Shown here piece by piece: positions 22,988 through 50,413 of a DNA stretch of 64,000 bases. The notes under the pieces were generated by a model. The model saw only the letters and a list, made by a program, of their open reading frames with translations. It did not search any database and was not told where the DNA came from. This stretch comes from Candidatus Daviesbacteria bacterium GW2011_GWA1_41_61 (GTDB lineage: Bacteria; Patescibacteriota; Microgenomatia; Daviesbacterales; UBA10151): assembly GCA_000997385.1 (NCBI GenBank), contig LCBT01000003.1, forward strand, positions 64,892 to 128,891, written 5' to 3'. Position numbers and translations under genes: made by a program. Every line of letters begins with the position of its first letter. Position 1 is the stretch's first letter.

Positions 22988-23000
22988 ATGACAAAGATTT

Positions 23001-23888
23001 TTAAACTTCTTCCTTACCTGCTTCTTCCCGGATAACTTCCAGCACCGGCTCAAGGTTCCCTTCCATGATTTTTTCCAGGTTGTACCAGGATTTACCAATC
23101 CGATGATCAGTGATCCTGTTTTGGGGAAAATTATAAGTCCTGATTTTTTCACTTCTGCCCCCTTCTCCTACAGAAAGTTTCCTTTGCTTTGATATGGAAT
23201 TGAGTCTTTCTTCTTCTTGTTTCTCCCACAGTTTAGCTCGAAGTAGGGCCATGGCATTTTCCCTGTTTTGTAGCTGGGATCTTTCCGTTTGACAGGTAAT
23301 AACAATACCAGAAGGTAAATGTTTTAATCTGACAGCGGTATTTACTTTATTAACATTTTTAATATAAACTTCTGCCTCAGGCACTTGGGGTAAAACTGCC
23401 ACAGTAGCTGTGGAGGTATGGATTCTGCCTGAGGCTTCGGTCTCCGGCACTCTTTGCACCCGGTGGACACCTGATTCATACTGCAGAGATTGATAGGCTC
23501 CCTGACCGGCTATTTTAATAACTACCTCCTTGATCTGGCCAATCTTGCCTTCAGACCGGTCTAACTCCTCAATTTTCCAGCCTTGGTTTTGGGAAAATCT
23601 GCTGTACATTCTGGTTAAGTCTCCGGCAAAAAGCCCTGCCTCATCACCTCCGGCAGCTGACCTGATTTCTAAGATAGCTATGTTAGGATTGACCCCCTCA
23701 CCTGATTCCTCTTCTCCCTCTTGGGACATAGGAGTAGCGGCAGAAGATTCAAGCTCCTCCTTCTGTCTTTTTAGATCTTCAATTTCCAAGCGTGCTAAAG
23801 CAGCTAGCTCTGGGTCGGAAAGCAGCTTTTGTGTGTCTTTGATTTTTTGATCTATTTGTTCTAGTTGTTGTTGAATATAATCGTCCAT
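23001..23888 (-). CDS. prfA: Peptide chain release factor 1 homologue lacking the GGQ motif (295 aa)
   Basis: RF1-type PxT tripeptide ([17 protein letters not shown]), [24 protein letters not shown]-terminal [21 protein letters not shown]. The segment expected to hold ..[13 protein letters not shown].. reads [16 protein letters not shown]. Confidence 0.8.
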
Positions 23889-24364: not shown

Positions 24365-25351
24365 TTATACTCTGTGGGCTTTGTGGTGTTTATGCTGCTC
24401 TTTGGCTAAAGTGCTCCAGTAAACTCCCAGTCCTATTAATAAGGCTCCTATGACAAAAGTAAACCTGATCTGTTCCCCTAAGAGTAGTATTCCTAAAGTG
24501 ACAGCAATAACAGGCTCTATATATTGAAAAAGATCGGCTTTGACTACCCCCAGCTTCCCTAAACCCCATTCAAATAAAAAATAAGCTGAGGTAGAAGACA
24601 AAACAGCAATATAAATAATACCAAAGATTCCCAGGAAAGTCATTTTTAAGGGCCAGCTGGGGTTTTGGAAGTACTCTACAGCAGCAGGAAGGGCAAAGGT
24701 GATCATTCCTACCAAAAAGACAATGGCAGTAATAGTTAAGGTAGAGTATTTTGTAAGCATCTTTTTAGACAGGATAGCTCCAGCCACCCAGGATATAGAA
24801 GCTAGAATGATTAACAGGTTGCCTAAAATAGCCTCTGAAAATAGGGAAGTCCCCAAAATATAGACAGGCAAGCCGATAACCAAAGCTGCTCCCAGCAAAC
24901 CCAGTAAGATGCCAAAAAGGTTAAAGGTATAGATCTTCTCTTTAAAAATCCACCAGGCAGTTAAAACGGAAACTACCGGAATAGTCATGGTCAGTACTGA
25001 GGCGGTGGTGGCGGTAGTTCTGGCTATTCCCAGATAAAAAAGGGCAATGTTTAAAGTAGACATTAAAGCTCCAATAGCAATCAGTTGAGGCAGGTCTTTT
25101 TTGCTGATCTTTAATTTATCCCTTTCTATTAATAAAAAAGGCAGTAGAAGCAGAGTAGCCAGGGTAAAACGGACAAAAGCCAAAGACATGGGGGGAACTT
25201 CTTGTAAGGTAACTTTGGCTACTACAAAGTTAATCCCCCAAATAGTATGAGCTGCCAAAACAGCTGCATAAGGCCAGGCAACAGTTACTAAATTTCTACT
25301 GCCAAGGTTAAAGTTTAACAATTTTTGAATTTTTAATACTGCTGTAGTCAT
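24365..25351 (-). CDS. EamA/DMT-family transporter
   Basis: Ten predicted TM helices and duplicated EamA-like halves. 4-bp overlap with hisS. Confidence 0.7.
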   Translation of the reverse strand: MTTAVLKIQKLLNFNLGSRNLVTVAWPYAAVLAAHTIWGINFVVAKVTLQEVPPMSLAFVRFTLATLLLLPFLLIERDKLKISKKDLPQLIAIGALMSTLNIALFYLGIARTTATTASVLTMTIPVVSVLTAWWIFKEKIYTFNLFGILLGLLGAALVIGLPVYILGTSLFSEAILGNLLIILASISWVAGAILSKKMLTKYSTLTITAIVFLVGMITFALPAAVEYFQNPSWPLKMTFLGIFGIIYIAVLSSTSAYFLFEWGLGKLGVVKADLFQYIEPVIAVTLGILLLGEQIRFTFVIGALLIGLGVYWSTLAKEQHKHHKAHRV

Positions 25352-26556
25352 CTTGAGTTAGAGAGTTTATCAACAACTTCAGGAAAGGAAAGCAAGACCT
25401 GAGACTTCAAAGTTAAATCTTTCAAAGCTATTTTTCCTGAAGTTGCTTCGTCGGGGCCAATAATGACAACATAAGGGATGCTTTTTTGATCAGCATATTT
25501 TAACTGTTTGTCCAGTTTGGAATCAGCATCTAACCAGAGTTCAGTATTAATATTGTTGGCCCGTAGTTTTTCAGCTACTTTTAAAGAATTAGCAAGATAA
25601 GTAGGGGAAAAAATTGTCACCAGGACTGAAGCTGAGGAGGAAGTTTCAAGCAAAATCCCTTGCTCCTTCAATACCTCTACAGTTCTGTCAAAACCTAAAC
25701 CAAAACCTACTGCCGGTAAGTTTTGTCCGGTAAAATTACCAATAAGGTTGTCCCATCTTCCTCCACTGCAAATTGACCCTGTACTGCCCTCCGCTACAGT
25801 CTCAAAGATCATGCCGGTATAGTAATCTAACCCTCTGGCCAGTGTTGGTTCATATTTGATCTTTTCCATATCTGTTCCCATTTGTTTTAAATGATCTAGG
25901 ATTTGTTGAAGGTTGGCGGTAAGGGGTTTGTTTTGCAGCGTCTTTAAAGCTTCCTGGGCCTCTTTTTCAACCATACCTTTTTGTACCATCTCTGAAAGGA
26001 CACCGCTTTCACCAATTTTTTCTAATTTATCAATAGCTGCCACATATTTTTTCTCTAAGCCCTCAAAGTTTATCCGGTCATTTATTTTAATGGTGATATT
26101 TAATCCTAGATTTTGGTAAATGTTTAGAACCAGGTTTATTATCTCTGCATCAGCCAAAGGAGATGAGGCACCAACAATATCCGCATCACATTGTAAAAAT
26201 TCCCGGTAACGTCCTTTTTGAGGGCTTTCTCCTCTCCAAACCGGCTGAGTCTGGTATCTTTTAAAAGGCTTTGCTAAGTTATGGTAAGAGGCCAAAACCC
26301 GGGCTAATGGTACAGTTTGATCATATCTTAAGGCCACTTCATCTCCGCCTCTAGTTTTAAACTCATAAATTAACTTTTCTTCTTCCCCGTATTTACCTTT
26401 TAAAACTGAAGCGTATTCTAAAGCCGGCGTTTCTAAGGGTTCAAAGCCGAAAAGACGGAACGTGGAGACTATTTTTTCCAAAACGTATCTTCGGGTATTG
26501 GCTTGCTCCGGCAAAAAATCCCGAAATCCTTTAACCGCTTGTAAAGGTTGTCCCAT
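25348..26556 (-). CDS. hisS: Histidine--tRNA ligase
   Basis: Class II motifs: motif 1 region KGFRDFLPE, HisA motif RGESPQKGRYREFLQCD, motif 3 GGRWDNL. C-terminal anticodon-binding domain. Confidence 0.9.
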   Translation of the reverse strand: MGQPLQAVKGFRDFLPEQANTRRYVLEKIVSTFRLFGFEPLETPALEYASVLKGKYGEEEKLIYEFKTRGGDEVALRYDQTVPLARVLASYHNLAKPFKRYQTQPVWRGESPQKGRYREFLQCDADIVGASSPLADAEIINLVLNIYQNLGLNITIKINDRINFEGLEKKYVAAIDKLEKIGESGVLSEMVQKGMVEKEAQEALKTLQNKPLTANLQQILDHLKQMGTDMEKIKYEPTLARGLDYYTGMIFETVAEGSTGSICSGGRWDNLIGNFTGQNLPAVGFGLGFDRTVEVLKEQGILLETSSSASVLVTIFSPTYLANSLKVAEKLRANNINTELWLDADSKLDKQLKYADQKSIPYVVIIGPDEATSGKIALKDLTLKSQVLLSFPEVVDKLSNSR

Positions 26557-31197: not shown

Positions 31198-32139
31198 ATG
31201 TTACCGGTAATTTTTTCAGTAGGGACTCTTTCCATCTCCTCATTTGGAGTCTTTTTGGGATTGGCTTTTTTAGCCGCCATTTACGTCTGTTGGAAAATGG
31301 CCCGTCTTTATGAAATTGATGAAGAGAGGATCTTAGATTTGGGGATCCTGGCCTTTTTTGGGGGGATGATCGGTGCCAGGCTTTATTTTGTTTTAACTCA
31401 CCTTGCTTTGTTTGATAATCTGCAAAAGATTGTTCTTATCAGCCGTTATCCCGGGCTCTCTTTATGGGGAGGGCTGACGGGAGGGATTTTGGCCTTATGG
31501 TTTTTTTCCTCCCGCAGCAAATTAAATTTTTGGCAACTGGCTGATTTTGCTGCAGCAGGTCTGCTTTTGGCTTTAAGCTTGGGGGATTTGGGCTGTCTTT
31601 TAGGAGGCTGTTATTATGGCCAAGTATCCGGCTCTTTTTTGGCCACTTCAGTAGCGGGGGTGATCGGGAAAAGATTTCCTCTGGCTGCCTTAGAGAGCCT
31701 GACTCTATTATTAGCTTACTTTTGGGTGGGGAAACAGGTGGTAAGATATCACTTTGCTGGAAAAATAATCGCTGTAGTGTTGTTAATTTTAGGGTCAGTA
31801 AAATTTATTTTTGAATTCTTTAGAGGAGATGCGATTTATCTTGCTTCCATCGGCATTTCTGAGGGACATTTGTGGTCAATTGGATCTTTGGCGGTTGGCC
31901 TGGCCATCTTTTATAACCGTTCTAAAAGGTCATTTTTTGATGACAGTGCTGCTTTGGTTAACCTGCCTTTTTCTCCCAAGAAACGTAAAGCCGTGCTGTT
32001 GTATCTTCGGAAAAACTGGTATAATTTTGTAGTAGACTGGAGAATTAAAGGGGCAAAATTAGGAGAGTTTCTAAAGCTTGCTCCCAAGAATTTAAAAAGG
32101 AGACTGAATGTTAAATCTACCCCAAAAAACCTTAGCTAA
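31198..32139 (+). CDS. lgt: Prolipoprotein diacylglyceryl transferase-like
   Basis: Polytopic membrane protein. GARLYFVL and GGCYYGQ resemble the Lgt signature regions. Confidence 0.6.
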   Translation: MLPVIFSVGTLSISSFGVFLGLAFLAAIYVCWKMARLYEIDEERILDLGILAFFGGMIGARLYFVLTHLALFDNLQKIVLISRYPGLSLWGGLTGGILALWFFSSRSKLNFWQLADFAAAGLLLALSLGDLGCLLGGCYYGQVSGSFLATSVAGVIGKRFPLAALESLTLLLAYFWVGKQVVRYHFAGKIIAVVLLILGSVKFIFEFFRGDAIYLASIGISEGHLWSIGSLAVGLAIFYNRSKRSFFDDSAALVNLPFSPKKRKAVLLYLRKNWYNFVVDWRIKGAKLGEFLKLAPKNLKRRLNVKSTPKNLS

Positions 32140-32479
32140 AGTTCGAGATTTACTGCTTCGAAGACAGAAAGAAGTGGATCAGCAACTGAAGAGCCTGGAA
32201 AAAAGTGATCCGGTGCTCTTAGACGGAGTAGCTGAGGCTTCAGAGTCAGGCACAGAATCATGGCTGGCGGATACTCATCGAAGGCTGACGGCGGTTAAAA
32301 ATGATCTGCTGGATTTTTCCTCCAGGATTACCTCCTCCCTTTTAAGAATTAAAAAGGGCACTTATGGAAAGTGTGAGAGGTGTAAAATTGCTATTGAAAC
32401 TGAAAGGTTAAAAGTGATGCCCATGGCTACTTTGTGCCTTGCCTGCTCCCAGAAATTCGTTAACAGCAAGAAAAGATAA
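32108..32479 (+). CDS. DksA/TraR-family C4 zinc-finger protein
   Basis: C-terminal CxxC...CxxC (CERCKIAIETERLKVMPMATLCLAC). Confidence 0.7.
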   Translation: MLNLPQKTLAKVRDLLLRRQKEVDQQLKSLEKSDPVLLDGVAEASESGTESWLADTHRRLTAVKNDLLDFSSRITSSLLRIKKGTYGKCERCKIAIETERLKVMPMATLCLACSQKFVNSKKR

Positions 32480-32538
32480 GCTGCCAATCTTAAGATCCAC
32501 TTTACAGAAGTGGTGATTAGTGTTATACAATCTAGTAT

Positions 32539-32952
32539 ATGGCTATGTTTACTTCAACACCTACTTCTTCCCCGGGAAAGATTTTAATTGTCGACGATGA
32601 TGATGATATCAGAAATATCTACAAAGATTATTTAACTGCCAATGGGTTTAAGGTCGAGCTGGCAACAAATGGTCAGGAAGGACTGTCCAAGATTCTTCAA
32701 GGAGGATATGATCTGATACTTTTAGATATTATGATGCCCAAAATAGATGGGTTGGGGATTTTAAGAAGGTTAAAGGAAAAACCTTTAAATCAAAATGTTT
32801 ACAATGGTCCCATTGTGGTTTTATCAGCCTTAAGGCAGGATGAAGTTTACAATGAAGCTTTAAGGTTAGGGGCCAAGGGCTATATTGTTAAATCAGACAT
32901 TACCCCCAAAGATCTATTAGATAAAGTAGTAGAGCTCCTCAAAAAACCCTAA
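32539..32952 (+). CDS. Single-domain response regulator (CheY-like receiver)
   Basis: KILIVDDDDDI, phospho-acceptor Asp in LILLDIMMP, KGYIVK. Confidence 0.8.
   Translation: MAMFTSTPTSSPGKILIVDDDDDIRNIYKDYLTANGFKVELATNGQEGLSKILQGGYDLILLDIMMPKIDGLGILRRLKEKPLNQNVYNGPIVVLSALRQDEVYNEALRLGAKGYIVKSDITPKDLLDKVVELLKKP
32854..32952 (+). repeat. 99 bp direct repeat, copy 1 (last 99 nt of the response-regulator gene including the stop)
   Basis: Identical at every position to 37065..37163. Confidence 0.85.
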
Positions 32953-32983
32953 AACAATTCCTAACTCTTTTCGAGTCGTACAA

Positions 32984-34357
32984 TTATTGTGGAATAAATT
33001 TTGCACCCAGTTTTTTAGAGTACTCTTTAGCTTGTTCTCTGTTTCCATCTCCAACATAGACATTTACTCTTTTGCCCTCTCTCCTTAATTCTTCAGATGA
33101 GGAAAATAGCTTTATTATTTGCTTAGTGGTTTTGGGATTTGAGTGCAAAACACTGTCAACACCATTTTTGTCAGTCCAGTAATTCACAGAGAACTGTTTC
33201 TCTTTTGATTTGTTTAGTAAATTAAAAAACTCACTAACTCTTTCAAGTCCATATGCAAATCCAACGGCAGGAATTTGATATTCTTTCCCAGCTAAAAATT
33301 TGCTAACCAACTTATTGTACCTACCACCTCCAGCTACCTCCACGAAAACTTCTTTTCCAAATTTAAGATCAATTTCATATACTATTTCTGTATAATACTC
33401 ATGGCTTCTAATAACTGAGGGGTCTATGACACATTTTATACCTCGAGCCTGCAGAACCGAGGCAATGATATTTAAGTCGTTAACAGGTTTACTGTAACCA
33501 AGCAATTTTTCTGTTTGTTGGTCTAAAACGGTAACAAAAGTATTGCATACGATCTCCCACTTTTTCATTAGTTGATTAGAAGTATCAGTCCTTTTTATAA
33601 TTTCTATTACCTTATCAATCTCGGGTTGAAGTCTCTCCGGCTGTTTTCCTGCACGAGATTCGGCAATAGTGTCCAAACTGTTTTTAAGAACTAACCGTGT
33701 CCGTTCATCTATCTGTGATTCATCGCACAATAAATTAAAAAGTTCGACGCTACCTATTCGGACAGTAATTAATTCTCCAGGGACATTTATTGCTATAAAA
33801 CCTTCATAAAGTAAGAAAAGAATTTCTATATCCGAAAGCAGATTTGAAGTTCCTAGTATTTCGACCCCCACCTGGTTAAATTCTCTATTTTTCGTAACAG
33901 AAAGTTTAGAAATCAGTTCGTTTCTGAAACAAGGTGTTATATAGAAAACTTTGATTGGGAAAAAGTTTTTAACCTTCTTGTTTGTCGCAAGAACTTTAGC
34001 AAGCCACCGAGAAACAGAAATAGTTCCTTCCGGTATGAGGAGAGATGGAACCTGTTCAGGAATGATATTATAAGATTCATTGTAATCCTGAATATGCAAA
34101 TGAAACACCCCTCGCTTGTCCCATTCTGGCCACGGAGAACCACCGATCACTTGTTCACTAAAACTACTAGCTCTTTCGACTAGAGGGAAAACTATTTGCT
34201 CATAACTCCATTTTTGGAAAACCTCAGAGATTTTATGGGCAATAAAGTTTTTAACTCTCACCTCTTGTCCTACAATATCTCTAAAACCCCTTAACGGTTC
34301 ACGAATATTCTCGTCTTTAAATCGCTTATTCAACTTGATCCTATAGGCAGAATTCAC
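32984..34357 (-). CDS. HisRS-like class II aminoacyl-tRNA-synthetase paralogue 1 (457 aa), divergent motifs
   Basis: Motif 1-like LRGFRDIVG, motif 2 position CFRNE, motif 3 GGGRYNKL. Insertion domain and C-terminal anticodon-binding-like domain. Distinct from hisS at 25348..26556. Confidence 0.65.
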   Translation of the reverse strand: MNSAYRIKLNKRFKDENIREPLRGFRDIVGQEVRVKNFIAHKISEVFQKWSYEQIVFPLVERASSFSEQVIGGSPWPEWDKRGVFHLHIQDYNESYNIIPEQVPSLLIPEGTISVSRWLAKVLATNKKVKNFFPIKVFYITPCFRNELISKLSVTKNREFNQVGVEILGTSNLLSDIEILFLLYEGFIAINVPGELITVRIGSVELFNLLCDESQIDERTRLVLKNSLDTIAESRAGKQPERLQPEIDKVIEIIKRTDTSNQLMKKWEIVCNTFVTVLDQQTEKLLGYSKPVNDLNIIASVLQARGIKCVIDPSVIRSHEYYTEIVYEIDLKFGKEVFVEVAGGGRYNKLVSKFLAGKEYQIPAVGFAYGLERVSEFFNLLNKSKEKQFSVNYWTDKNGVDSVLHSNPKTTKQIIKLFSSSEELRREGKRVNVYVGDGNREQAKEYSKKLGAKFIPQ

Positions 34358-34426
34358 ATAGACAGCAGGCTCTTAACATGATATAGTAGGTCTCATTAAT
34401 AATCAATAAAGGAAAGTGATGAACTT

Positions 34427-35827
34427 ATGCATGAAAGAAAAGACGATATGAAAAGAAGATCAGATATACTTACCCCAGATGTATTAAGAAGGAAAGGGGT
34501 TATGAAGGGTTTTGAATACCTAACTCCCGAAAGGCGCGGGGCTGTTAGAGAGATGGAAAATAGATTCAAAATGGTAACTGAATCTTTTGGATTCAGAGAA
34601 GTAGAAGGACCATTACTCCAACCAATTGAATTCTATCAAGTCAAGTCAGGAGAAGAACTGTTAGCCCACACATATACCTTCGAAGATACAGATGGAAGTT
34701 TACTTGTTCTTAGGCCAGAACTTACTCCCACTGTCGCTTATATGATTGCAAAAGACGATGCCAGATTAAGCTTCCCTCTTAAGTGGTGGTCTAATCCTGA
34801 CTTATTTAGAAAAGAAAAACCTCAAAAAGGTAGAAAAAGGCAATTTAAACAGCTAAATGTTGACATTTTTGACCGTGCAGATTCGGGTAGAGATCGGTCT
34901 TTTGACGATGCCGAAGTTATTGCAGTGGCAATTTCCATATTTGAGTCCTTCGACCTAACAGAAAACGATATAGTGATGAGAATAAATAGCAGATCATTGG
35001 TTGAAAGACTGTTCGATATAGTAGATCTTGACAAGAATCGTAGATTTGACCTTTTATCTCTTATAGACAAATCAGCTAAAATTTCAGCTGAGGAATTTGG
35101 GACCAAAGTCGAAGAGATTGTTCCCCAAAAATTTTCTCGAGAGCTTTTGCAAAGATGGCTGTCAATAAAAAGTCTTGAGGAAGTTGCTGATAATAAACAG
35201 CTTAGTCCTCTAAGTCAGTCAAAAGAATATAAAGATCTAGCTAAGGTTTTTGAATTAATGAAGGCGTATGGGGTGTCAGAATACTGCGAGTTTTCTCCTT
35301 ATATCGTCAGAGGTCTTGGTTACTATACAGGATCAGTATTCGAAACATTTGATAGAAAACCAGAACATGGTTTTAGAAGAGCACTTATGGGTGGAGGAAG
35401 ATATGATAATCTTACGAAAGATGTAGGAGGAAGACTTGATATTACAGGGGTTGGTTTCGGGTTTGGAAATGTGCCTCTTGAAGAGATTCTATTATCGAGA
35501 AATATAGAGATTGTTCCCTCTGAATCTCGTGCAGATTATTGTATCGTTACACAGTCTGCCAACCAGCGAATCGATGCTATCACTCTTTCACAGAGATTAA
35601 GAAAGCAGGGTAAAAAAGTGATCTTGGATGATTCCATTTCTAAAGAGAAACCAGACAAGGTCTCAAAACAACTTTCTCGAGCCAATCAACTAAATTCTAA
35701 GTATTCTCTAATCATTTTTCCTGAAGAGTGGCAAGATAAAAAGGTGGTCATTAAAGATATGCAAAACGGAGAACAACAAATTATCGATATTAGTTCTTTA
35801 CTTGAAACCCAACCTAAATCTGACTAA
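34427..35827 (+). CDS. HisRS-like class II aminoacyl-tRNA-synthetase paralogue 2 (466 aa)
   Basis: Motif 1 MKGFEYLTPE, HisA-like FRKEKPQKGRKRQFKQLNVDIF, HisB-like GGGRYDNL, C-terminal anticodon-binding-like domain. Confidence 0.7.
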   Translation: MHERKDDMKRRSDILTPDVLRRKGVMKGFEYLTPERRGAVREMENRFKMVTESFGFREVEGPLLQPIEFYQVKSGEELLAHTYTFEDTDGSLLVLRPELTPTVAYMIAKDDARLSFPLKWWSNPDLFRKEKPQKGRKRQFKQLNVDIFDRADSGRDRSFDDAEVIAVAISIFESFDLTENDIVMRINSRSLVERLFDIVDLDKNRRFDLLSLIDKSAKISAEEFGTKVEEIVPQKFSRELLQRWLSIKSLEEVADNKQLSPLSQSKEYKDLAKVFELMKAYGVSEYCEFSPYIVRGLGYYTGSVFETFDRKPEHGFRRALMGGGRYDNLTKDVGGRLDITGVGFGFGNVPLEEILLSRNIEIVPSESRADYCIVTQSANQRIDAITLSQRLRKQGKKVILDDSISKEKPDKVSKQLSRANQLNSKYSLIIFPEEWQDKKVVIKDMQNGEQQIIDISSLLETQPKSD

Positions 35828-36856
35828 GTCATCTAAATACTCCCAAGAGTTAAAATTAATATCTTTCTTGTTTTTTTCTAAAATACCTAACGCCTGTATA
35901 CCCCTTTCTTTAAGCATTTTCTCACAATAAGAACGAGCACCAACCTTGGTAATTATTTCTCTTATAAGACTTGCTTCTTTTTGAGTCAAATCCGGCTTAC
36001 CTATATAATTTTTTAATATATTTTTTTCATCTTTATTAGCAAGCTCATAGCCTTTAACAACCAACAGGCTTTTAACCCCCATTCGCAAATCAACAATATT
36101 TGATTTCCCCGTAACCTTCTCGTTACCAAATACACCTTCTAAGTCGTCTTTCAATTGCGAAGCTGCACCCACAAGACGAGCGTATCTATTAAGACTGTTC
36201 ATAAGTTTTTGTGGAAGTCCTCCTAGAATAGCACCAACAGTGAGTGGTAATGAGTAGCAATATAGGGCCGCTTTATTTGTATACATCTCCCAAACCTGTT
36301 CATTTTTCATTTTTCCAAGTTCCCTCATTACAAAATCGAGGTCTGTCACCTGACCAATATTAGTTAGCTCATTAGTTTTAGATATAATGTTTAATGCTTC
36401 GATTTTTCTTTTTTGGGGATACGGAGAGTTCAGTATCATTTCAATTGCCCAAGACCACAGGAAGTCGCCAGCCAAAATAGCCAAATCATTGCCCATCTTC
36501 TCACTCTTGTTGAATTTTCTACTTTGAATATGAATAGTTGGTACATCGTTTTTGATATCATCCTGATCAATAATGTCATCATGAATAGCTAAATATTTGG
36601 TGAAAAAAGTTGTAAAGATTGAAGTATTAATTATGTTCTCTGTGATTTTATTCCCGGCAGCCATATATCCTACCAAAACTAGGGCAGGTCGGGGTTGTGT
36701 AATTTCTGCCAAGGTATATTTCCTAAGGAATTTAATTATTTCGGGTGTAATACCAAATTTTTTCCCTTGATATTGTTCTAGCTTGTGGTTGAAATAGGAC
36801 TCTAAAGCAATTCTAACTTGTGGACTATACTTTTCAATCACTTCCTTTACTTTCAT
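35798..36856 (-). CDS. trans-Isoprenyl diphosphate synthase-family protein (polyprenyl synthetase fold)
   Basis: First Asp-rich motif LAIHDDIIDQDD. Second motif region GAASQLKDDLEG is slightly degenerate. Confidence 0.7.
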   Translation of the reverse strand: MKVKEVIEKYSPQVRIALESYFNHKLEQYQGKKFGITPEIIKFLRKYTLAEITQPRPALVLVGYMAAGNKITENIINTSIFTTFFTKYLAIHDDIIDQDDIKNDVPTIHIQSRKFNKSEKMGNDLAILAGDFLWSWAIEMILNSPYPQKRKIEALNIISKTNELTNIGQVTDLDFVMRELGKMKNEQVWEMYTNKAALYCYSLPLTVGAILGGLPQKLMNSLNRYARLVGAASQLKDDLEGVFGNEKVTGKSNIVDLRMGVKSLLVVKGYELANKDEKNILKNYIGKPDLTQKEASLIREIITKVGARSYCEKMLKERGIQALGILEKNKKDINFNSWEYLDDLVRFRLGFK

Positions 36857-37064
36857 GGACCCATTTTACATTATAGTGGTGAAAATATAAATATTAGAGG
36901 TTTTATTTAAAGACTAATTAACCTCATCAAAAACAGTACTGCTCCAATTTTGTGTCAAGCGCCCCTTTTTATACTGATTTTGCAAACGAGAAGTGGTTAA
37001 AAATGTAGCCTAAATTGAGCTGGAGATTTTTTAAGGTGTTACGGTATGATCTATTTAGATTGAA

Positions 37065-37163
37065 GAAGCTTTAAGGTTAGGGGCCAAGGGCTATATTGTT
37101 AAATCAGACATTACCCCCAAAGATCTATTAGATAAAGTAGTAGAGCTCCTCAAAAAACCCTAA
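37065..37163 (+). repeat. 99 bp direct repeat, copy 2 (orphan copy of the response-regulator 3' end)
   Basis: Identical to 32854..32952. Not attached to a receiver-domain ORF. Confidence 0.85.
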
Positions 37164-37354
37164 GTTTACGTAGAGGCAGAAGATGTAATTTGTGCCAGTA
37201 TTTTTTCACCTCGGAGAGCTTAATTTTATGGTTGTCTCCTGGACCATAATTTATCATCCGCTCCAGTAGGAGTATTCTGCCTGCTTCACTTTTTTGCAGT
37301 TTTTTTTGGGTCGTAGTCCCAGACAAACATACTTCAACTATTATACAACATAGT

Positions 37355-37843
37355 TTAAGTATTAATCCTTATTCCAATCCTTATAAATAAATATCTTATT
37401 ACAACTGTTGGGTGTTTAAAAAATTCGTTAAAAATAACCTTTTTACTGATAGGGGGAACCTCTTTTTTGATAATTTGTTTATCTTGAGAGCGGGTGTCGT
37501 TAAGCAGTGTTAAGAGCTGTGGATCATGTAGTTTAGGGAGATTATTTGGGTAAAAGAAGGCCACGTCTTTTGATTCATTACTTGTTTGGGCAGATCCTGA
37601 GATAATTTGGCATTCAAAAAGATGATTAATCCTTTTAGAATTGTGATAACAATATTCCCCAACCTTTCTTTTTACTTTAGTTTGAAAACCGGATTCTTCC
37701 CAAACTTCTCTGACTACAGCTTGCTGGGGAGATTCTGATTTTTCTATCCTTCCTCCGGGTAAGACCCAAATAGGCACATCACGTCTTTTTACCATCAGGA
37801 CCTTTTTATCTTTATCAAAAACTATACCTATAGCTCCATCCAT
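37355..37843 (-). CDS. Nudix hydrolase
   Basis: Nudix box GGRIEKSESPQQAVVREVWEESGF. Confidence 0.75.
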   Translation of the reverse strand: MDGAIGIVFDKDKKVLMVKRRDVPIWVLPGGRIEKSESPQQAVVREVWEESGFQTKVKRKVGEYCYHNSKRINHLFECQIISGSAQTSNESKDVAFFYPNNLPKLHDPQLLTLLNDTRSQDKQIIKKEVPPISKKVIFNEFFKHPTVVIRYLFIRIGIRINT

Positions 37844-37857
37844 ATTATTATATCCCT

Positions 37858-38365
37858 ATGGACTTAAAGTCTTTCCAAATAGCCCAAGATTACCTAGGGA
37901 AAACAGTTAAAGTTAAAATAGATAGGCCTTTAGGGAGTAAACATCCTAAATGGGGTTTTTGAATATCCTTTAAACTATGGTTTTATTGAAGGAGTTTTAG
38001 CCCCAGATGGGGAAGAGTTTGATGTTTATGTTTTAAAAGTTAAGAAACATTTAGAGGAATTTACAGGAAAAGTGGTGGCTATAGTTCACCGTTTAGAAGA
38101 TGATGATGACAAGTTAGTGGTAATTCCAGAAGATTTAGATATCAAAGATACAGAGATAGAGAAAAGGTGGATTTTCAGGAAAAATGGACAAGTATACTTT
38201 GAATTTATTGATTATTATAAACCAACAAAGTTAAATTTAATTGAAATAGAAGGTCCAAATAATAAAATTATACAAACTTTAATTGATGAATTAGGGGATG
38301 AGGTTAAAGTTGTAGGTGAGGAAATTTTTTCTGTATTTGACAAGAAGAGGCTCAAAAAACCTTAA
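37858..38365 (+). pseudogene. ppa: Family I inorganic pyrophosphatase with a +1 frameshift in a T5 homopolymer (37956..37960)
   Basis: Frame A gives ..KIDRPLGSKHPKWGF* and frame B gives YPLNYGFIEGVLAPDGEEFDVYVL...LEDDDDKLVVIPED. Removing one T joins them into a full-length PPase of about 168 aa. Confidence 0.65.
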
Positions 38366-38394
38366 GATATTAACTGCTATAATGCCTTCAGGAT

Positions 38395-39369
38395 ATGTTT
38401 ATGGCAGAAAGTTCCTACAAAAAATTATTAGAAGTTTCCAGGATAGTTGGGTTACCGATAAAAAAGATTCTGGATATTCTCTATTATCTTGGCAGTGGTA
38501 AGAGGATATTAAATAACAACTTATTGCAAACAGTAGGAGTGTCTAGAAATGTTTTAAATCAGGTTAAACAACAGCTAGAAGAATTTTTTATCCAGAAGAG
38601 CCAATTTACTGTGTTATCTAATCAAGCTACTACTATAGCTAAAAAAATATTAGGGGAAAGTTATACCCCGGAAGAGAAATTGATAAACATATCTTTAGCT
38701 AAAAATACTCAGCTTTTATCACTCATATCCCATTCTCAACCTCAGCCTATCAGGGGATATGATCAATTCTTAGCCGATTCTGAGACGGTGGTTAAAAGAG
38801 CTGCTTTAATGGATTTTTTTGCTGATATTGAAGGGAAAAGAATCCTGTTTTTAGGAGATGATGATTTTACCTCTGTTGCTATTGCTTTTTATAGAAAAGC
38901 TCAGACAATTACTGTAGTAGATATCGATAAGAAAATTTTAGATGGTATTCAAGAAATTTCAGACAGCTCATCTTATCAAATTACGACCAAGCCGTATGAT
39001 GCTAGAGAAAAATTATCTCCAGAGTTGTCAGGAAAATATGACATTGTTTTTACTGATCCTCCTTATACGAGAGAAGGTATAAGCCTATTTTTATCTCGGG
39101 CTGTGCAGGCTTTAGATCCTACTAATCAGGCTGGGAGGATTTATTTTTGTTATGGTAACAGTGACAGAGCTAAGGAAAGATATTTACCCATTTATGAAGT
39201 TATTATTTCTTCAGGACTGATGATCAGATGGGTTTTTGATAAATTCAACCGTTACAGTGGGGCAGAGTCCATAGGCAGTGCCAGCAGTTTATTTATTTGT
39301 GATGTTACCCCCAAGACAAAACCAAAAATTACAGGAGAATATAAAGGAAATATTTATACAGAAAGGTAA
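38395..39369 (+). CDS. DUF43/BpsA C-terminal-domain-like protein (putative aminopropyl-/methyl-transferase) with N-terminal wHTH
   Basis: RILFLGDDDFTSVA, DIVFTDPPYT motif. Confidence 0.55.
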   Translation: MFMAESSYKKLLEVSRIVGLPIKKILDILYYLGSGKRILNNNLLQTVGVSRNVLNQVKQQLEEFFIQKSQFTVLSNQATTIAKKILGESYTPEEKLINISLAKNTQLLSLISHSQPQPIRGYDQFLADSETVVKRAALMDFFADIEGKRILFLGDDDFTSVAIAFYRKAQTITVVDIDKKILDGIQEISDSSSYQITTKPYDAREKLSPELSGKYDIVFTDPPYTREGISLFLSRAVQALDPTNQAGRIYFCYGNSDRAKERYLPIYEVIISSGLMIRWVFDKFNRYSGAESIGSASSLFICDVTPKTKPKITGEYKGNIYTER

Positions 39370-39371
39370 TG

Positions 39372-39500
39372 CTTTTTTAAAGATCTGATTTCTTGAAGTG
39401 TACCATACATTAATACTTGGTGGACAGTATCCGGTGATCTAATATCTGCTGTGGTTGAATACCACATACGCAGGTGGTTTTGTACCTCACAGCAGAGTAG
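39372..39500 (+). repeat. Repeat R2 (99 bp) fused to an XRE-tail remnant, copy 1
   Basis: 39372..39470 is identical to 51823..51921. 39471..39500 encodes QVVLYLTAE*, matching the 3' end of the XRE gene at 43941..43970. Confidence 0.75.
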
Positions 39501-39576: not shown

Positions 39577-40698
39577 ATGGTTGAGAGTTATACTGACACT
39601 CCAATTTCATTGTCTCCAGTCATAAAAGCAGTCTCTGGTGGTTGTAACTTACGCTGTAATTACTGCTTTTATTCTGGTAATCAGCCAGAAATAAAAAGGA
39701 TGAGTGTTGACACCCTAGAAGCTCTTACTAAACATTTATTAGAGTCTCCATCGAAACATTTTAATTTTATTTGGCATGGCGGTGAGCCAATGCTATTAGG
39801 AATAGAATTTTATGAGAAAGCGTTAGAAGCACAAACGAGGTACAAAAGATCAGATCAAGATATCCGTAATTCTCTCCAAACGAATGCTACTCTTATCAAT
39901 CAGGGATGGGTAGACTTTTTTAAAAGAAATAGTTTTGGTGTAGGAGTAAGTATTGATGGTCCTGCTGAGCTTCATGATTTAGTGAGGGTACAGACCGATG
40001 GAAGGGGGTCTTATGATCAAGTGGTATCAGGAATCAATCAATTGAAGGCAGCTAATATTTCCTTTGGTGGGATAGCGGTCGTAAATAGGATAACTGTCAA
40101 CCATCCAGAGACTATGTTTGCTTTTATCAAAGATGGAGGAATACCAATGGCTTTAAATCGGTGTAATGCTAACACTGATGATCCGGAAGAGGTTAGAAAA
40201 TTAGCGGTTGGTCCAGCTGAGTATAACGCATTTTTATTAAAGATATTTGATCTATGGATCAATGAAAATAATCCAGCGATCAAAATCCGTCCTCTTGATG
40301 AATTAGTTAGGGCAACCTTAGGCTATCATACAGAGAGTTGTAGCTTTTTAGGCCAGTGCGAAAGATATTTTACAGTTGATTTTAATGGCGATGTGTATCC
40401 TTGTGATGAGTTCCTTAATGATAGGTATCTATTGGGGAATATTAAAAGACAGGCAGTAAATGAGCTTTGGCAAGGTGGGGATTTTAGAAGATACTATTTA
40501 GGAAGGCGTGGTGTAATTATTAACTGTGAGGGGTGTGAGTGGATGGATGTGTGCAATGGCGGATGTATAAGAGATTGGGAAGGATCTAAAGGTATGTTTA
40601 ACCCGAAAGAAATTAGCTTTTGTGAAGCAAAAAGGTCGTTATTTCAAACTATAAAATTAAGATTGTCAGAGTTGGGATATACTAGAGGTATAATCTAA
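39577..40698 (+). CDS. Radical SAM/SPASM-domain enzyme (anSME-like peptide-modifying maturase), cassette 1
   Basis: CNLRCNYC radical SAM cluster motif, GGEP. C-terminal SPASM cysteines (CSFLGQC..CDEF...CEGCEWMDVCNGGC). Confidence 0.85.
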   Translation: MVESYTDTPISLSPVIKAVSGGCNLRCNYCFYSGNQPEIKRMSVDTLEALTKHLLESPSKHFNFIWHGGEPMLLGIEFYEKALEAQTRYKRSDQDIRNSLQTNATLINQGWVDFFKRNSFGVGVSIDGPAELHDLVRVQTDGRGSYDQVVSGINQLKAANISFGGIAVVNRITVNHPETMFAFIKDGGIPMALNRCNANTDDPEEVRKLAVGPAEYNAFLLKIFDLWINENNPAIKIRPLDELVRATLGYHTESCSFLGQCERYFTVDFNGDVYPCDEFLNDRYLLGNIKRQAVNELWQGGDFRRYYLGRRGVIINCEGCEWMDVCNGGCIRDWEGSKGMFNPKEISFCEAKRSLFQTIKLRLSELGYTRGII

Positions 40699-40723
40699 TT
40701 ATAAAAGAAAGAAGGTGAAAAAT

Positions 40724-40957
40724 ATGCTAAGAGAAGCAGAAACGGCAGCATCTACTGACGCAGAAACATTAGATCTAACAGCTGTTGTACCTGTTGAACC
40801 GGTAGAGCGAAGTGTCAGAGAACCAAACTTGGTCATTGAAGAGGTGCTAAAAGGATCTAAGAAGCTTATTACACTTTGGTCGGGAGATCATAGCGATCAT
40901 GTAGATGTTAACTTTCCTTATGGTGACTATGCTGATAGATGGAGTGATAAAGCTTAA
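40724..40957 (+). CDS. Small acidic precursor-like peptide (77 aa), cassette 1
   Basis: GAAGGTG ribosome-binding site. Helical acidic N-terminal region. C-terminal core WSGDHSDHVDVNFPYGDYADRWSDKA with repeated aromatic/His-x-Asp triplets. Confidence 0.5.
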   Translation: MLREAETAASTDAETLDLTAVVPVEPVERSVREPNLVIEEVLKGSKKLITLWSGDHSDHVDVNFPYGDYADRWSDKA

Positions 40958-43163: not shown

Positions 43164-43970
43164 GTGCAGAGAGAGTGTAATACACTTTTTAGCCAATTTA
43201 TGTTAACAGCTACTTTAGGAAGGTTAATTAAAGATCATAGATTAAGAAAAAGGCTTTCACAGCTGGAAATTTCTTTAAGGATAGGTTGGAGGGATACCAC
43301 CAGGTTATCTAAGATAGAGCAGGGAAGGGTGGGGAAACCTCTTAGGAAGACAGTAGATAAGATCATGGAGGCTCTAGATTTAAATAAGCAGGAAAGAGGA
43401 GAGTTTTTACTAGTTGGAGGATATCTACCCACAGATGAGGAAATTAAAAAGGTTATCAAACTGGTAAAAGAAAGAATAAACACTTGGCCTTACCCAGCCT
43501 ATTTGTTAGATTTCTCCTGGAGAGTTCTGTGTCTTAATCAACATACTATTGATATCTTTAAGTTACCTTCTGCTCTAAAGAGCATTTCTTTTAAAAAAGC
43601 TCCAAATCTACTGGAATTCCTTTTTTCTCCCAAGGAGGTTCTACCGGTTAAAATAGAAAAAGGTGATGATGACAAATCAGTCCAACCTTTCCCGATAGCA
43701 CAAGTTGCTCAATTTAAAGTAGAGCAAAATGGCAGGGATAATGAGAAGTGGTATAAAGATTTAATCAAAAAGTTGATGCAAAATGAGCAATTCCGTCAGG
43801 TTTGGCCCAAAGTAGATCCCAAACAGTATCACAAAAAGTTGTTAGATTATGAATATAAAGTAATTACTTGGCCAGACAAAAGTCACAAAACCTTTAGGTT
43901 TCATATTTTCACCTCCAGATTAATCCAAGACCAAAGGTTCCAGGTGGTATTATACCTCACAGCAGAGTAG
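43164..43970 (+). CDS. XRE-family HTH regulator with C-terminal domain
   Basis: HTH LSQLEISLRIGWRDTTRLSKIEQG. Its last about 29 codons (43884..43970) form the gene-tail repeat found at four other sites. Confidence 0.65.
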   Translation: MQRECNTLFSQFMLTATLGRLIKDHRLRKRLSQLEISLRIGWRDTTRLSKIEQGRVGKPLRKTVDKIMEALDLNKQERGEFLLVGGYLPTDEEIKKVIKLVKERINTWPYPAYLLDFSWRVLCLNQHTIDIFKLPSALKSISFKKAPNLLEFLFSPKEVLPVKIEKGDDDKSVQPFPIAQVAQFKVEQNGRDNEKWYKDLIKKLMQNEQFRQVWPKVDPKQYHKKLLDYEYKVITWPDKSHKTFRFHIFTSRLIQDQRFQVVLYLTAE

Positions 43971-44144: not shown

Positions 44145-44654
44145 TTAGGTGGAAATGAGTTGAAAACTATCAGTTAAAAGTGTACTCATCTCTTTCTGGT
44201 AAAGGTAGATGTTTTCAAAGAAGTTTAAACAGGATTCTTTGAATTTAGGGAAAGTGTCATAGTATTGGTTGTAGGTAACTTTCTGATGAAACAGTCTCCA
44301 TAACCTCTCAATCAAGTTTAAATTGGGTGAATATGGTGGCAGGAATTTAGGGATTAACCTTGGATGGTATCTTAGATAGTTTTGGACCTGTCTTGAGTAG
44401 TAATACCTGGCATTGTCCCAAATCAGATAAATCCTGCCTGTTGGGTGCTTTTCTAATAGTTGGTCCAGCAGATTGATGGTGGAAGTTGAGTTAATCCTTA
44501 AATCTTCCCTGATGATTACATCATGGGTTTTAGCATTTAAGGCCCCATTTAAGTTTAACCTGTCCCTGCCTGTATTAGACTTAATTAGTTTATCAGTCCC
44601 CTTTAGTATCCAACCATACGAAGGTCTGGTATTATGCTGGGGATGAGTTTGCAT
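44145..44654 (-). CDS. IS630-family transposase DDE-domain ORF (+1 frame relative to orfA)
   Basis: LIWDNARYYYS, LPPYSPNLNLIERLW. 23 nt overlap with orfA. Confidence 0.7.
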   Translation of the reverse strand: MQTHPQHNTRPSYGWILKGTDKLIKSNTGRDRLNLNGALNAKTHDVIIREDLRINSTSTINLLDQLLEKHPTGRIYLIWDNARYYYSRQVQNYLRYHPRLIPKFLPPYSPNLNLIERLWRLFHQKVTYNQYYDTFPKFKESCLNFFENIYLYQKEMSTLLTDSFQLIST

Positions 44655-45174
44655 CCAGGAAGTAGATCTGGTCAGCTGCTTCTAACTGATTTTTAAGTTT
44701 TAAGTACTCATCTAAAAAGGCTCGCTGTTTGTCTAAATCAGCTTTGGCTGGTACAAGCTTGGGTTTCTTGTAGACAAAGCCTAACCTGTGGAGGAGTTTA
44801 GTCATACCAATAACTGAGTATTTAATGTGATATGTGGATTTAATATACCGGGCTACTTCTTTAGCTGTTAAGTAAATATGCTCACCTTCTGCTAAATGGT
44901 TTTTGAGTTCCAGCTCTTGGGTTTTGGTAAGTCTTGGATGACCACCAGTGTAGTGGAACTGCAATAATCCACTCAGTCCCTCTTGCTTAAAACTTTTAAC
45001 ATATCTCCTGATGGTTGTCTCGTCTAAAAGCAGTGCAGCAATTATCTGGGGATATGTGAAGCCTCTATGAACCATGAGTATGGCTTTGATTCTATCAGCC
45101 AACCTTTTGTCTCTTACCTGTTTATGTGCCTTTCTCAAAACCAGCACTTCTTCTTCAGTTAAAATTTCGGGCAT
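44632..45174 (-). CDS. IS630-family transposase N-terminal (HTH) ORF
   Basis: Helix-turn-helix region and HYTGGHPRL. Confidence 0.7.
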   Translation of the reverse strand: MPEILTEEEVLVLRKAHKQVRDKRLADRIKAILMVHRGFTYPQIIAALLLDETTIRRYVKSFKQEGLSGLLQFHYTGGHPRLTKTQELELKNHLAEGEHIYLTAKEVARYIKSTYHIKYSVIGMTKLLHRLGFVYKKPKLVPAKADLDKQRAFLDEYLKLKNQLEAADQIYFLDANSSPA

Positions 45175-45564: not shown

Positions 45565-46287
45565 TTAGTTAATTTGCTTTATAACTTCTAGAAAATCCTT
45601 GTTGTAGACATGCCTAAATTTTTTATAAAAGATTATATTATTACATCTATCACCCAGTGACGACAGAAAATATAAAAGTTGAAGTTTGCCATATTTTTTA
45701 ATTAAGTAACTTACTGCTCTCCAACTGTGCCAATAGCCCTGTATAGATGGTTTGGCTACATTCTTACTCCATTGTTTTGATGTTCCTAGCAAGAAAATCG
45801 TCCGGGGGTTAAAATTGATACTAAAGTTACTAGCTAAGTTTATCTGGCCAGCAACAAAACAGGCCAAACCCTCATCAAACCATTGCGGTCTATAACCTTT
45901 ATGTATTGCACTGGTAAATAAGTGGGCAATCTCATGGCAAAGGATCTTTTTAAACTCATTTTTATTATGATTACTCACTTTCTCAAATACTTCCGGGCTA
46001 AATATACAAATCTGGCTTTGGGTCGATGGGTCAGCACGACCTACCAGCCAGGGTGGAGTTTTATGGCCAGATAGATCATCCATTTCTTGGCGTGTATATA
46101 ATAAAACCAAATCGACTCCATCAATTTCCCTTTTGAAGAACTTCACATTTCTTCTGTAACATTGCTGCAACATTTTTTTTACTTCACCTATAAAATTGTC
46201 ATCAAATGAATAATAGATTGTACCTTTGGCGGTAGTACTTAAGCTGAAAAGCTCTCTTTTTTTGTTTTTAATCATTAATTGTCTCAT
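45565..46287 (-). CDS. HExxH-motif protein (putative Zn metallopeptidase), cassette 2
   Basis: CHEIAHLF. Lies between the radical SAM gene and the peptide. Confidence 0.5.
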   Translation of the reverse strand: MRQLMIKNKKRELFSLSTTAKGTIYYSFDDNFIGEVKKMLQQCYRRNVKFFKREIDGVDLVLLYTRQEMDDLSGHKTPPWLVGRADPSTQSQICIFSPEVFEKVSNHNKNEFKKILCHEIAHLFTSAIHKGYRPQWFDEGLACFVAGQINLASNFSINFNPRTIFLLGTSKQWSKNVAKPSIQGYWHSWRAVSYLIKKYGKLQLLYFLSSLGDRCNNIIFYKKFRHVYNKDFLEVIKQIN

Positions 46288-47647: not shown

Positions 47648-47864
47648 AATCTTTTCCTGGGCTTCTACGCGAATACTATCATTAATAAATGGTACTGTCA
47701 AAAATTTTGGTTTAACACCAGCAGGGGACAATACCAGAAATTATCAGCAGCAATGAATGGTATTTGATAGTTGTATTTTGACAAACATGGAGATGTTATG
47801 TTATTAGTAAGGATGTAATTTAAGAAGGAAGAAAGAGTAGCTAATTTGATGTTAATTTAAAAAG

Positions 47865-50326: not shown

Positions 50327-50413
50327 CACAAAACCTTAAGGTTCCATATCTTTACTTCTAGATTAATCCAAGACCAAAGATTTCAGGTGGTGCTATGTTT
50401 GCCAGCAAGGTAA
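50327..50413 (+). repeat. XRE gene-tail repeat, copy B (orphan 3' fragment)
   Basis: Encodes HKTLRFHIFTSRLIQDQRFQVVLCLPAR*. Homologous to 43884..43970 with mostly synonymous differences. Confidence 0.65.

Follow-up and report, generated by a model that had tools for sequence, protein, structure and literature searches.

The 64,000-nucleotide stretch of contig LCBT01000003.1 of Candidatus Daviesbacteria bacterium GW2011_GWA1_41_61 analysed here (hereafter the window) contains an insert of three genes that is bounded by direct repeats and located between a response-regulator (RR) gene and a Nudix hydrolase gene. Gene A (positions 32984 to 34357, minus strand; 457 amino acids [aa]) and gene B (34427 to 35827, plus strand; 466 aa) encode members of the histidyl-tRNA synthetase (HisRS) family, which are paralogues within the aminoacyl-tRNA synthetases (aaRSs), and gene PS (35798 to 36856, minus strand; 352 aa) encodes a protein with a polyprenyl-synthase fold that belongs to a cassette-linked subfamily. 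A first-pass annotation of this DNA had described a 4.1-kb insert with three genes and no integrase, and had placed in it two divergent HisRS-family paralogues separate from hisS. Both descriptions were borne out: the genes lie where they had been placed, no recombinase is found between the repeats, and the housekeeping hisS (25348 to 26556, minus strand; 402 aa) is of the bacterial type and scores 392.1 bits against the HisRS equivalog model TIGR00442 (cutoff, 286.75). The new element at this locus is the A-B-PS cassette, a putative accessory pathway built on an aaRS paralogue and accompanied by an extra aaRS copy; the repeat-flanked insertion is in itself ordinary.

Properties of genes A, B, and PS

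The product of gene A matches PF13393 (115 bits). Comparison of both paralogues with the models for HisRS and HisZ, a check proposed in the first-pass annotation, placed A below both cutoffs, with 180.9 bits against TIGR00442 and 141.6 bits against the HisZ model TIGR00443 (cutoff, 271.65), and B at the borderline of HisRS. The catalytic motifs PEGT, FRNE...REFNQ.G.E, GGGRY, and GFAYGLER are all present in A. The HisA motif is altered from RGLDYY to RSHEYY, and the motif pattern of HisRS is found only in part. The earlier statement that this paralogue had diverged at both the HisA and the HisB positions is therefore largely wrong, as only the HisA motif has changed. Alignment of the A family revealed 64 columns that are invariant across phyla, including SPWPEW, PEGT, motif 2 (R..E....K.R.F.Q.G.E), RSHEYYT in place of RGLDYY, GGGRY, and motif 3 (GFA.G.R). 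In 18 sequences drawn from at least five phyla, the motif 2 arginine, GGGRY, and the motif 3 arginine do not vary.

The AlphaFold2 (AF2) model of A (pLDDT of 88.8) presents the two-domain fold of HisRS, and its top Foldseek matches are HisRS structures, with the HisZ structure 3od1 also among the matches. The C-terminal domain has no match in Pfam and is modeled as a shortened beta-alpha-beta-alpha-beta unit (residues 402 to 456); the match of A to TIGR00442 ends at profile position 378 of 406. The family comprises 172 database clusters from candidate phyla radiation (CPR) bacteria, Actinobacteria, Firmicutes, Planctomycetota, and Acidobacteria. Some homologues carry an N-terminal phosphopantetheine-carrier (PP-binding) domain with a GLDS motif (P0081, from Carnobacterium, and P0097), and others carry an N-terminal methyltransferase fusion (P0086, P0103, and P0109). 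Judged from these sequences, gene A represents an undescribed HisRS-derived family with intact class II catalytic motifs.

Gene B encodes an archaeal/eukaryote-type HisRS, with 1wu7 as the best PDB match (E value of 5e-58). It scores 281.7 bits against TIGR00442, just under the cutoff, and fails the HisZ model TIGR00443 with 153.1 bits. The class II motifs and the HisA and HisB motifs are all found (FRKEKPQKGRKRQF, RGLGYY, and GGGRYD), together with an anticodon-binding domain (PF03129, 31.8 bits; cutoff, 21), in agreement with the first-pass reading that this paralogue keeps both histidine motifs and an anticodon-binding-like domain. The B clade contains about 30 clusters at 39% identity or more, followed by a sharp drop to ordinary HisRS, and the contigs of this clade match those of the close relatives of A. 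Outside the Daviesbacteria lineage, the B partners form a bacterial-type clade of their own, with mutual scores of 270 to 460 bits and about 190 bits to housekeeping HisRS. These proteins have intact catalytic motifs and a shortened C-terminal domain, and score 301 to 321 bits on the hisS model TIGR00442. On this comparison, the bacterial-type partner is replaced in the Daviesbacteria lineage by an archaeal-type HisRS, which suggests that the cassette requires HisRS-type activity as such from B. In one contig of the same population (L020, JGI 3300025012), B carries a 22-nucleotide (nt) frameshifting deletion (nt 449 to 470), and the same variant is without a 12.4-kb segment described below; given this frameshift, B appears dispensable in the organism of the window.

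A and B are separated by a divergent spacer of 69 nt (34358 to 34426), and their head-to-head order is kept in the related loci L029, L030, L039, L076, and L077. Promoter and terminator scans returned counts no higher than those of shuffled sequences, including the promoter-like hexamers in the A/B spacer, and an Rfam scan of positions 32000 to 38500 retrieved nothing, T-box and leader elements included.

The PS protein matches PF00348 with 122 bits (cutoff, 27) and keeps the first Asp-rich motif DDxxD, within a conserved AIHDDIID, and the downstream lysines. Its closest solved relatives are the geranylgeranyl diphosphate (GGPP) synthases 1wy0 and 3lk5. All specific NCBIfam synthase equivalogs are failed, with best scores of 111 to 154 bits against cutoffs of 450 to 500. 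Four motifs are replaced, GGKRxRP by ..TQPRP, R(H/R)G by KND, KT by KA, and FQ by SQ, at positions that we take, from structural work on farnesyl diphosphate synthase (FPPS) and GGPP synthase (GGPPS), to contact isopentenyl diphosphate (IPP) or to stabilize the condensation. The four canonical positions are kept in the nearest relatives outside the cassette, CPR/archaeal type I GGPP synthases (identity of about 33%), whereas the PS proteins found with A in Firmicutes, Actinobacteria, and Acidobacteria, although otherwise distant, have the same four changes; two PS clades thus share derived substitutions that are absent from the nearest GGPPS-like relatives outside the cassette. Our inference is that PS does not elongate chains, and the residue pattern suggests prenyl transfer to an acceptor other than IPP. 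The first-pass label of trans-isoprenyl diphosphate synthase holds for the PF00348 fold and the DDxxD motif and does not extend to the equivalog cutoffs or the IPP-site residues. The DDxxG form of the second motif, considered at one point as aberrant, was dropped because canonical CPR and actinobacterial GGPP synthases, 3lk5 included, share it.

Recurrence of the cassette across phyla

The A family was searched by an alignment scan with two motif patterns over one genome per species (185,579 species); the species of the window was not returned, so the scan is not exhaustive. The family is rare, with 37 loci among the genomes scanned. By tblastn mapping, 26 of these 37 loci have B no more than 3 kb away from A, and the remaining 11 consist of 7 fragments or contig ends and 4 loci with A but no B. 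The neighborhoods were mapped in this way because clustering of open reading frames (ORFs) is unreliable in high-GC Actinobacteria, where spurious antisense ORFs arise. PS is near A in 16 of the 37 loci, and an APH-family kinase is present in 10, all of them from Actinobacteria and with the order A-PS-APH-B. Overall, A and PS are linked in about 20 loci, and their stop and start codons overlap in Actinobacteria, as in the A-PS-APH-B locus of Carbonactinospora, where the stop of A overlaps the start of PS. In L039 and L040, as in L029, L076, and L077, the gene directly after A is DDAH-like. The A and B genes, with or without PS, the kinase, and the DDAH-like gene, are shown by these maps of predicted genes to form a rare, cross-phylum, colocalized cassette. 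No publication on the A family or on this combination of genes was retrieved from the literature.

Related cassettes were found in at least six phyla; one lies on a Streptomyces plasmid and another in a Rep_trans-linked locus of Carnobacterium. The latter, in Carnobacterium maltaromaticum, comprises two AMP-binding genes, a PCP-A gene, PS, B, and an ABC exporter near the Rep_trans gene. The other neighbors are heterogeneous and lean toward biosynthetic or envelope functions: a B12-radical-SAM gene (L042 and L055), ATP-grasp and MFS genes (L062), a GT2 gene between A and B (L051), and UDP-GlcNAc 2-epimerase, CMP-transferase, and NeuB genes around A-PS-B (L046). Genes of the histidine-ammonia-lyase family lie near the cassette in L039 and L077. 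In three CPR loci, a tRNA-His(GTG) gene is found 100 to 115 nt upstream of the cassette, in its A/B or PS/B/A form (L033, 8816 to 8888; L041, 7825 to 7897; L039, 1510 to 1585); the two of these tRNA genes that were inspected (L033 and L039) are ordinary, with an encoded G-1 and the discriminator C73.

A plasmid collection queried with A by tblastn gave no match at 1e-30; the Streptomyces plasmid, which is in GTDB, carries a 30%-identical member of the family (L068). No relatives of A were found on viral contigs. No hisG was found in the annotated genes or tblastn maps of the window or of about 45 related loci, a scan that covered these loci and not whole genomes. The correlation of A-A identities with B-B and PS-PS identities (r of 0.63 to 0.74) was set aside as evidence of cotransfer, since any gene pair of the same genomes would show it.

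The repeat and the origin of the insert

The left repeat copy (32854 to 32952, plus strand) is the 3' end of the RR gene (32539 to 32952, plus strand; 137 aa; PF00072, 92 bits), which encodes a stand-alone receiver, and includes its stop codon; because the repeat contributes this 3' end, the RR gene is intact. The right copy (37065 to 37163, plus strand) is an orphan 3' fragment of the same gene. The two copies are identical at 99 of 99 positions and spaced by 4211 nt, and the chance expectation of such a pair in 64 kb is effectively zero. The perfect 99-bp repeats of the first-pass annotation are thus exact and correctly placed, whereas their length is technical. In independent assemblies (L002, L003 to L006, and L016 to L018), the repeat, here called R, is a perfect 157 nt with sharp borders and a spacing of 4293 nt, and joins the final 99 nt of the RR gene to 58 nt of downstream sequence. 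In the 228-kb JGI contig L002, the copies lie at 8346 to 8502 and 12639 to 12795 and are identical at 157 of 157 positions. The contigs compared belong to the same population, Candidatus Daviesbacteria from Rifle groundwater, which includes the NCBI metagenome-assembled genomes GW2011_GWA1_41_61, GWA2_40_9, and GWC1_40_9.

Relative to these other assemblies, the window retains only the first 99 nt of R in its left copy and is without 82 nt (58 nt of R and 24 nt of unique sequence) between 32952 and 32953; a second 82-nt gap lies directly after the right copy, between 37163 and 37164. The defect is mirrored in L001, the sister NCBI assembly, where only the last 99 nt of R remain at both junctions. 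For the Rifle samples, reads of 150 bp were assembled by IDBA-UD with -maxk 100 (PMC4736985), so that contig ends at a repeat share k-1, or 99, nt, and no read can span the 157 nt of R. The 99-nt length seen in the window is an assembler limit; the repeat itself is real. As a lesson of method, when short-read metagenomes show exact repeats whose length equals k-1 (here 99), that length marks the limit of the assembler and not biology, and sequence beside such repeats may be lost from the assembly.

A second, unrelated exact 99-nt direct pair is present at 39372 to 39470 and 51823 to 51921, and its first copy is followed by a window-specific gap of 113 nt relative to L002. Compared with L011 to L013, the window has also lost 50 nt of the release factor 1 (RF1) gene at position 23359, most likely another local assembly error; the gene is split into the minus-strand ORFs 22307 to 23152 and 23001 to 23888, and the lost 50 nt encode the GGQ region. 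The possibility that the DNA upstream of the right copy of R is a degraded RR pseudogene was considered and rejected (alignment score of -20 versus -17.5 +/- 6.4 for shuffles, in a frame rich in stops).

The strongest evidence on the origin of the insert is comparative. Two loci (L029 and L076) carry PS-B-A at 75 to 80% protein identity within wholly different flanks, and in L039 the A, B, and PS genes are 59 to 67% identical at the protein level in a different neighborhood. The nucleotide homology with L029 and L076 extends from the exact stop codon of A to about 83 nt upstream of PS. In L029, L039, and L076, the clusters continue as a five-gene series, PS-B-A-DDAH-APH. By this comparison, the insert of the window is a truncated, three-gene version (PS-B-A) of the longer series, with the break exactly at the stop codon of A. 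The cassette can be considered imported because relatives carry the same genes in unrelated contexts, and the 4.1- to 4.3-kb segment is, on these sequence comparisons, a horizontally acquired accessory cassette lodged between the RR and Nudix genes. Among the foreign contexts, B-A-DDAH lies close to a large serine recombinase in L077, tRNA genes are at the cassette edge in L029 and L039, an insertion sequence (IS) element is near the cassette in L029, and a sigma factor is among the neighbors. Base composition was dropped as a sign of foreignness: in the GC comparison suggested in the first-pass annotation, the insert (0.360) differs from the left flank (0.409) and does not stand out from the approximately 15 kb to its right (0.355).

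As to the route of entry, a circular intermediate with one 157-nt copy would most likely have entered by single-crossover (Campbell-type) recombination; alternatively, att-type recombination could have been performed by an integrase encoded elsewhere. Either route would duplicate the 157-nt segment and leave the RR gene intact, and the reverse reaction would free a 4.29-kb circle. Contig L008 has exactly that circular permutation, running from the insert through R to the start of the insert with a terminal overlap of 127 nt, and fits an excised circle or a tandem copy; alternatively, it could be a path of the assembler. The first-pass annotation had taken the duplicated 3' end as the hallmark of site-specific integration. 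This goes beyond what is found, since an integrase is absent, no empty site is seen in 33 contigs carrying RR or Nudix, and the 157-nt identity fits homologous recombination. The perfect 157-nt duplication fits single-crossover homologous recombination at least as well as site-specific integration.

Two other accounts of the insert bear on the same observations. In one, the insert is a decayed or helper-dependent island, a tyrosine-integrase-type element that entered the 3' end of the RR gene site-specifically and brought a substitute 3' end with it, for which the copies of R are attL and attR and the integrase is lost or acts in trans. Genomic islands at gene 3' ends resemble the insert in that imported DNA lies between direct repeats derived from the gene end and the target gene, here together with its downstream sequence, stays whole; the cassette has also been mobile over evolutionary time, with the tRNA genes, serine recombinase, and IS element mentioned above nearby, and L008 is circularly permuted. 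Against this stand the lack of any recombinase or integrase between the repeats or beside the insert, where only A, B, and PS are found inside and RR and Nudix flank them, and the type of the sole transposase genes, which lie 7 to 15 kb away and belong to the IS630 and rve types that make no such repeats. The empty site, RR joined directly to Nudix, was seen in none of 10 RR-carrying and none of 23 Nudix-carrying contigs read. JGI metagenome contigs, a collection in which the presence of this population is not established, gave no match to a pattern of an RR-unique 17-mer, 157 N, and a right-tail 16-mer; among the matches listed when the collection was queried with the RR protein, there were only generic receivers at no more than 45% identity. 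Moreover, a perfect block of 157 nt is long for an att core, and the insert is a piece of a gene cluster and not a self-contained element. We regard such an island as rather unlikely. In the other account, a separate 4.3-kb element or a strain variant was threaded through the shared repeat during assembly. The assembly of the window is indeed faulty here and elsewhere (deletions of 82, 82, 113, and 50 nt versus other assemblies), many contigs end exactly at the repeat, R is longer than the reads, and an integrated insert and a chromosome plus a circle give identical de Bruijn graphs. Nevertheless, the path from RR, R, and A to B, PS, R, and Nudix is read without a break in five or more contigs (L002, L003, L005, L020, and L022), which stem from different pipelines and samples, three paired-end-free megahit contigs (L016 to L018) read directly from RR through R into A, and no contig links RR straight to Nudix. 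Multiple independent read-through contigs make a pure assembly artifact very unlikely, and import of the cassette with duplication of R by recombination is the reading followed below.

To the right of the insert, the Nudix hydrolase gene (37355 to 37843, minus strand; PF00293, 61.6 bits) is not orthologous to the cassette-side Nudix gene of L029 (36% over 50 aa by tblastn) and matches the PADLOC candidate family PDC-S07 (E value of 9e-15). The region beyond it is strain variable: L020 and L024 are without 12.4 kb, and L021 has different genes. A BpsA_C-like methyltransferase-fold protein is encoded at 38395 to 39369 and has a weak mad2 match (E value of 1e-8). In L021 (ENA ERZ4902915), this gene and its neighbors (window position 38395 onward) are replaced, directly after a 96-aa ORF, by genes for helix-turn-helix (HTH), HipA_C, MFS, and SLT proteins. 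The 12.4-kb segment, which lies between the second 99-nt pair, is a real presence/absence polymorphism. It contains radical-SAM (rSAM)/SPASM genes, a second Nudix gene, a methyltransferase gene, an MmyB-like regulator gene, an IS630-like transposase, and two more rSAM genes. The three radical-SAM/SPASM maturase-like genes lie at 39577 to 40957, 46268 to 47731, and 47865 to 49244, and one is followed by an 80-aa ORF (40715 to 40957); they look like biosynthesis of the ribosomally synthesized and posttranslationally modified peptide (RiPP) type in a CPR genome. The IS630-family transposase (44145 to 45174, minus strand) consists of an HTH ORF (44632 to 45174) and a DDE_3 ORF (44145 to 44654) that overlap by 23 nt, and could be a frameshifted gene or a case of programmed frameshifting. 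A gene at the distal margin of this variable region (51063 to 51710, minus strand) encodes an AbiEii-family nucleotidyltransferase, a toxin of the type IV toxin-antitoxin class. Four repeats of about 86 nt, 63 to 80% identical and with the core TCTAGATTAATCCAAGACCAAAGRTTCCAGGTGGT, are found at 43884 to 43969, 50327 to 50412, 51892 to 51977, and 53686 to 53771. One of them abuts the IS630-like transposase, one overlaps the second 99-nt repeat, and they may be IS ends or elements resembling miniature inverted-repeat transposable elements (MITEs).

Proposed function and alternatives

In the proposed pathway, A would activate histidine or a close analogue with ATP and pass it to a non-tRNA acceptor, a step put forward with low certainty. 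For the Carnobacterium fusion, this acceptor could be the thiol of a carrier protein; elsewhere, a small-molecule or lipid-linked acceptor could take its place. A non-tRNA acceptor is favored because the HisA motif is altered, the anticodon-binding domain is truncated, carrier-protein and methyltransferase domains are fused to some homologues, and tailoring, export, and envelope genes are neighbors. The link to histidine is drawn because the B partner is always a HisRS and because genes of the histidine-ammonia-lyase family and tRNA-His genes lie near some cassettes. PS would probably supply or attach a prenyl group rather than elongate chains. B would either furnish His-tRNA(His) or His-AMP specifically for the pathway or, should the product act against HisRS, for instance as a mimic of His-AMP, serve as a HisRS copy that protects the translation of the producer. 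The first-pass suggestion of an adenylate-dependent small-molecule or lipid pathway fits the linkage of A with PS, and in some loci with a kinase, as well as the carrier-protein and methyltransferase fusions, and is plausible at that level only.

Parts of this scheme have counterparts in known systems. Ligases derived from aaRSs that act on non-tRNA acceptors include the SerRS- and GlyRS-like amino acid:carrier-protein ligases, MshC (a CysRS-like Cys:GlcN-Ins ligase), EpmA/PoxA, and AsnA. They are adenylate-forming cores that load a carrier thiol, an amino sugar, or a protein, and some members of the A family carry a PP-binding fusion. None of them is derived from HisRS or linked to a second aaRS or to an enzyme of prenyl-synthase fold, and the activity of A is a prediction. 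Within the cassette of the window, no carrier protein, kinase, exporter, DDAH, or APH gene was found, so the gene setting of an amino acid:carrier-protein ligase is not seen there. Extra aaRS copies in biosynthetic clusters serve in self-resistance (IleRS2 for mupirocin, SerRS for albomycin, and LeuRS for agrocin) or as suppliers (the SerRS VlmL for valanimycin). B resembles them as a divergent, motif-intact second copy that accompanies biosynthetic-looking genes across phyla and coexists with a normal hisS. In contrast, A-B-PS is far smaller than typical clusters, and B may be the sole HisRS in several CPR genomes. The ComQ-type nonelongating synthases share with PS the PF00348 fold, the retained Asp-rich motif, and the altered IPP-condensation residues, but they have no specific sequence relationship with it, and no ComX-like peptide accompanies PS. 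HisZ, the only HisRS-derived paralogue listed in a 2022 review (PMC9437257), is like A in having the catalytic fold of HisRS, a noncanonical anticodon-binding domain, and a match to PF13393, and in working with an unrelated, adjacently encoded enzyme. It differs in that it has lost adenylation and always has HisG as its partner, whereas A keeps the adenylation motifs, is accompanied by a HisRS and PS, and has no hisG nearby.

The explanation as a whole, an imported A-B-PS cassette with a recombination-derived 157-nt duplication and a pathway in which A acts with PS and B as a non-tRNA ligase of histidine or an analogue, is evenly poised in our judgment between being right and being wrong. Several observations weigh against it. 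Neither an integrase nor an empty site was found, so that the proposed mechanism of insertion is conjectural. The assembler could have produced the circular contig L008 by a path through the repeat, and the 157/157 identity of the copies could partly be consensus collapse, since 150-bp reads cannot span R. The change of the HisA motif in A could mean a different amino acid, and A occurs without B in four loci (L042, L054, L065, and L068). B may be the housekeeping HisRS in CPR loci with only A and B (L030, L033/L041, L043, and L047), which weakens the reading of B as an immunity gene. The copy in the window, which has no DDAH, APH, carrier, or exporter gene and of which B is frameshifted in L020, may be a decaying, nonfunctional remnant. 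A bolder version of the scheme is offered only tentatively, as a possibility that we doubt: A would be a third functional lineage derived from HisRS, an active ligase that together with PS yields a histidyl (or His-analogue) isoprenoid or nucleotide-like product, B would provide immunity or supply, and the cassette would be a compact, horizontally mobile antibiotic-plus-immunity or envelope-aminoacylation module common to CPR episymbionts, Actinobacteria, Firmicutes, Planctomycetota, and Acidobacteria.

Two further accounts of the genes were weighed against this pathway. The cassette could hold ordinary histidine paralogues, with A a HisZ-like regulator, B a redundant or stress-specific HisRS, and PS adjacent by chance. 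Members of the A family are annotated at NCBI as "ATP phosphoribosyltransferase regulatory subunit," the HisZ models give E values of 1e-41, and 3od1 is among the fold matches. These similarities are outweighed by the TIGR00443 scores of 142 bits for A and 153 bits for B, against a cutoff of 272, by the retention in A of catalytic residues that HisZ lacks (PMC9437257), by the occurrence of hisG in none of the approximately 45 related loci examined, and by the linkage of A and PS described above, with its overlapping stop and start codons in Actinobacteria and the shared derived substitutions of PS. A was rejected as a HisZ on the cutoff failure, the lack of hisG in the loci examined, and the retained adenylation residues. 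The first-pass annotation had named a HisZ next to hisG as the finding that would overturn its reading; no hisG was found in the window or the related loci, and the HisZ cutoffs were failed. We consider this account of ordinary paralogues the least credible of those discussed. The cassette could instead be a toxin/immunity or antiphage module, in which A (together with PS) would either form a toxic product that resembles an aminoacyl nucleotide or use up His-tRNA upon infection, and B would rescue translation. The strain-variable region that the cassette borders, which includes AbiEii, HipA (in the variant L021), the PDC-S07-matching Nudix gene, and IS elements, would suit such a role, as would the type I restriction-modification genes that adjoin the cassette in Carbonactinospora and the NACHT and Mrr genes of L077. 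However, A, B, and PS match no PADLOC model (PADLOC-DB v2), the cassette is not on viral contigs, and many loci look biosynthetic or envelope related and not defensive, so that a module of this kind is unlikely.

If the proposed pathway of A, B, and PS is true, the A family, conserved across phyla and with its catalytic motifs intact, would enlarge the known set of aaRS-derived enzymes, and probably also that of metabolites or envelope modifications. Members of the family occur in the culturable hosts Carnobacterium maltaromaticum, Nocardiopsis, and Sphaerisporangium, which makes the proposal directly testable. For the biology of the CPR, the insert would show a minimal genome that has acquired an accessory pathway by import, which is rarely seen.

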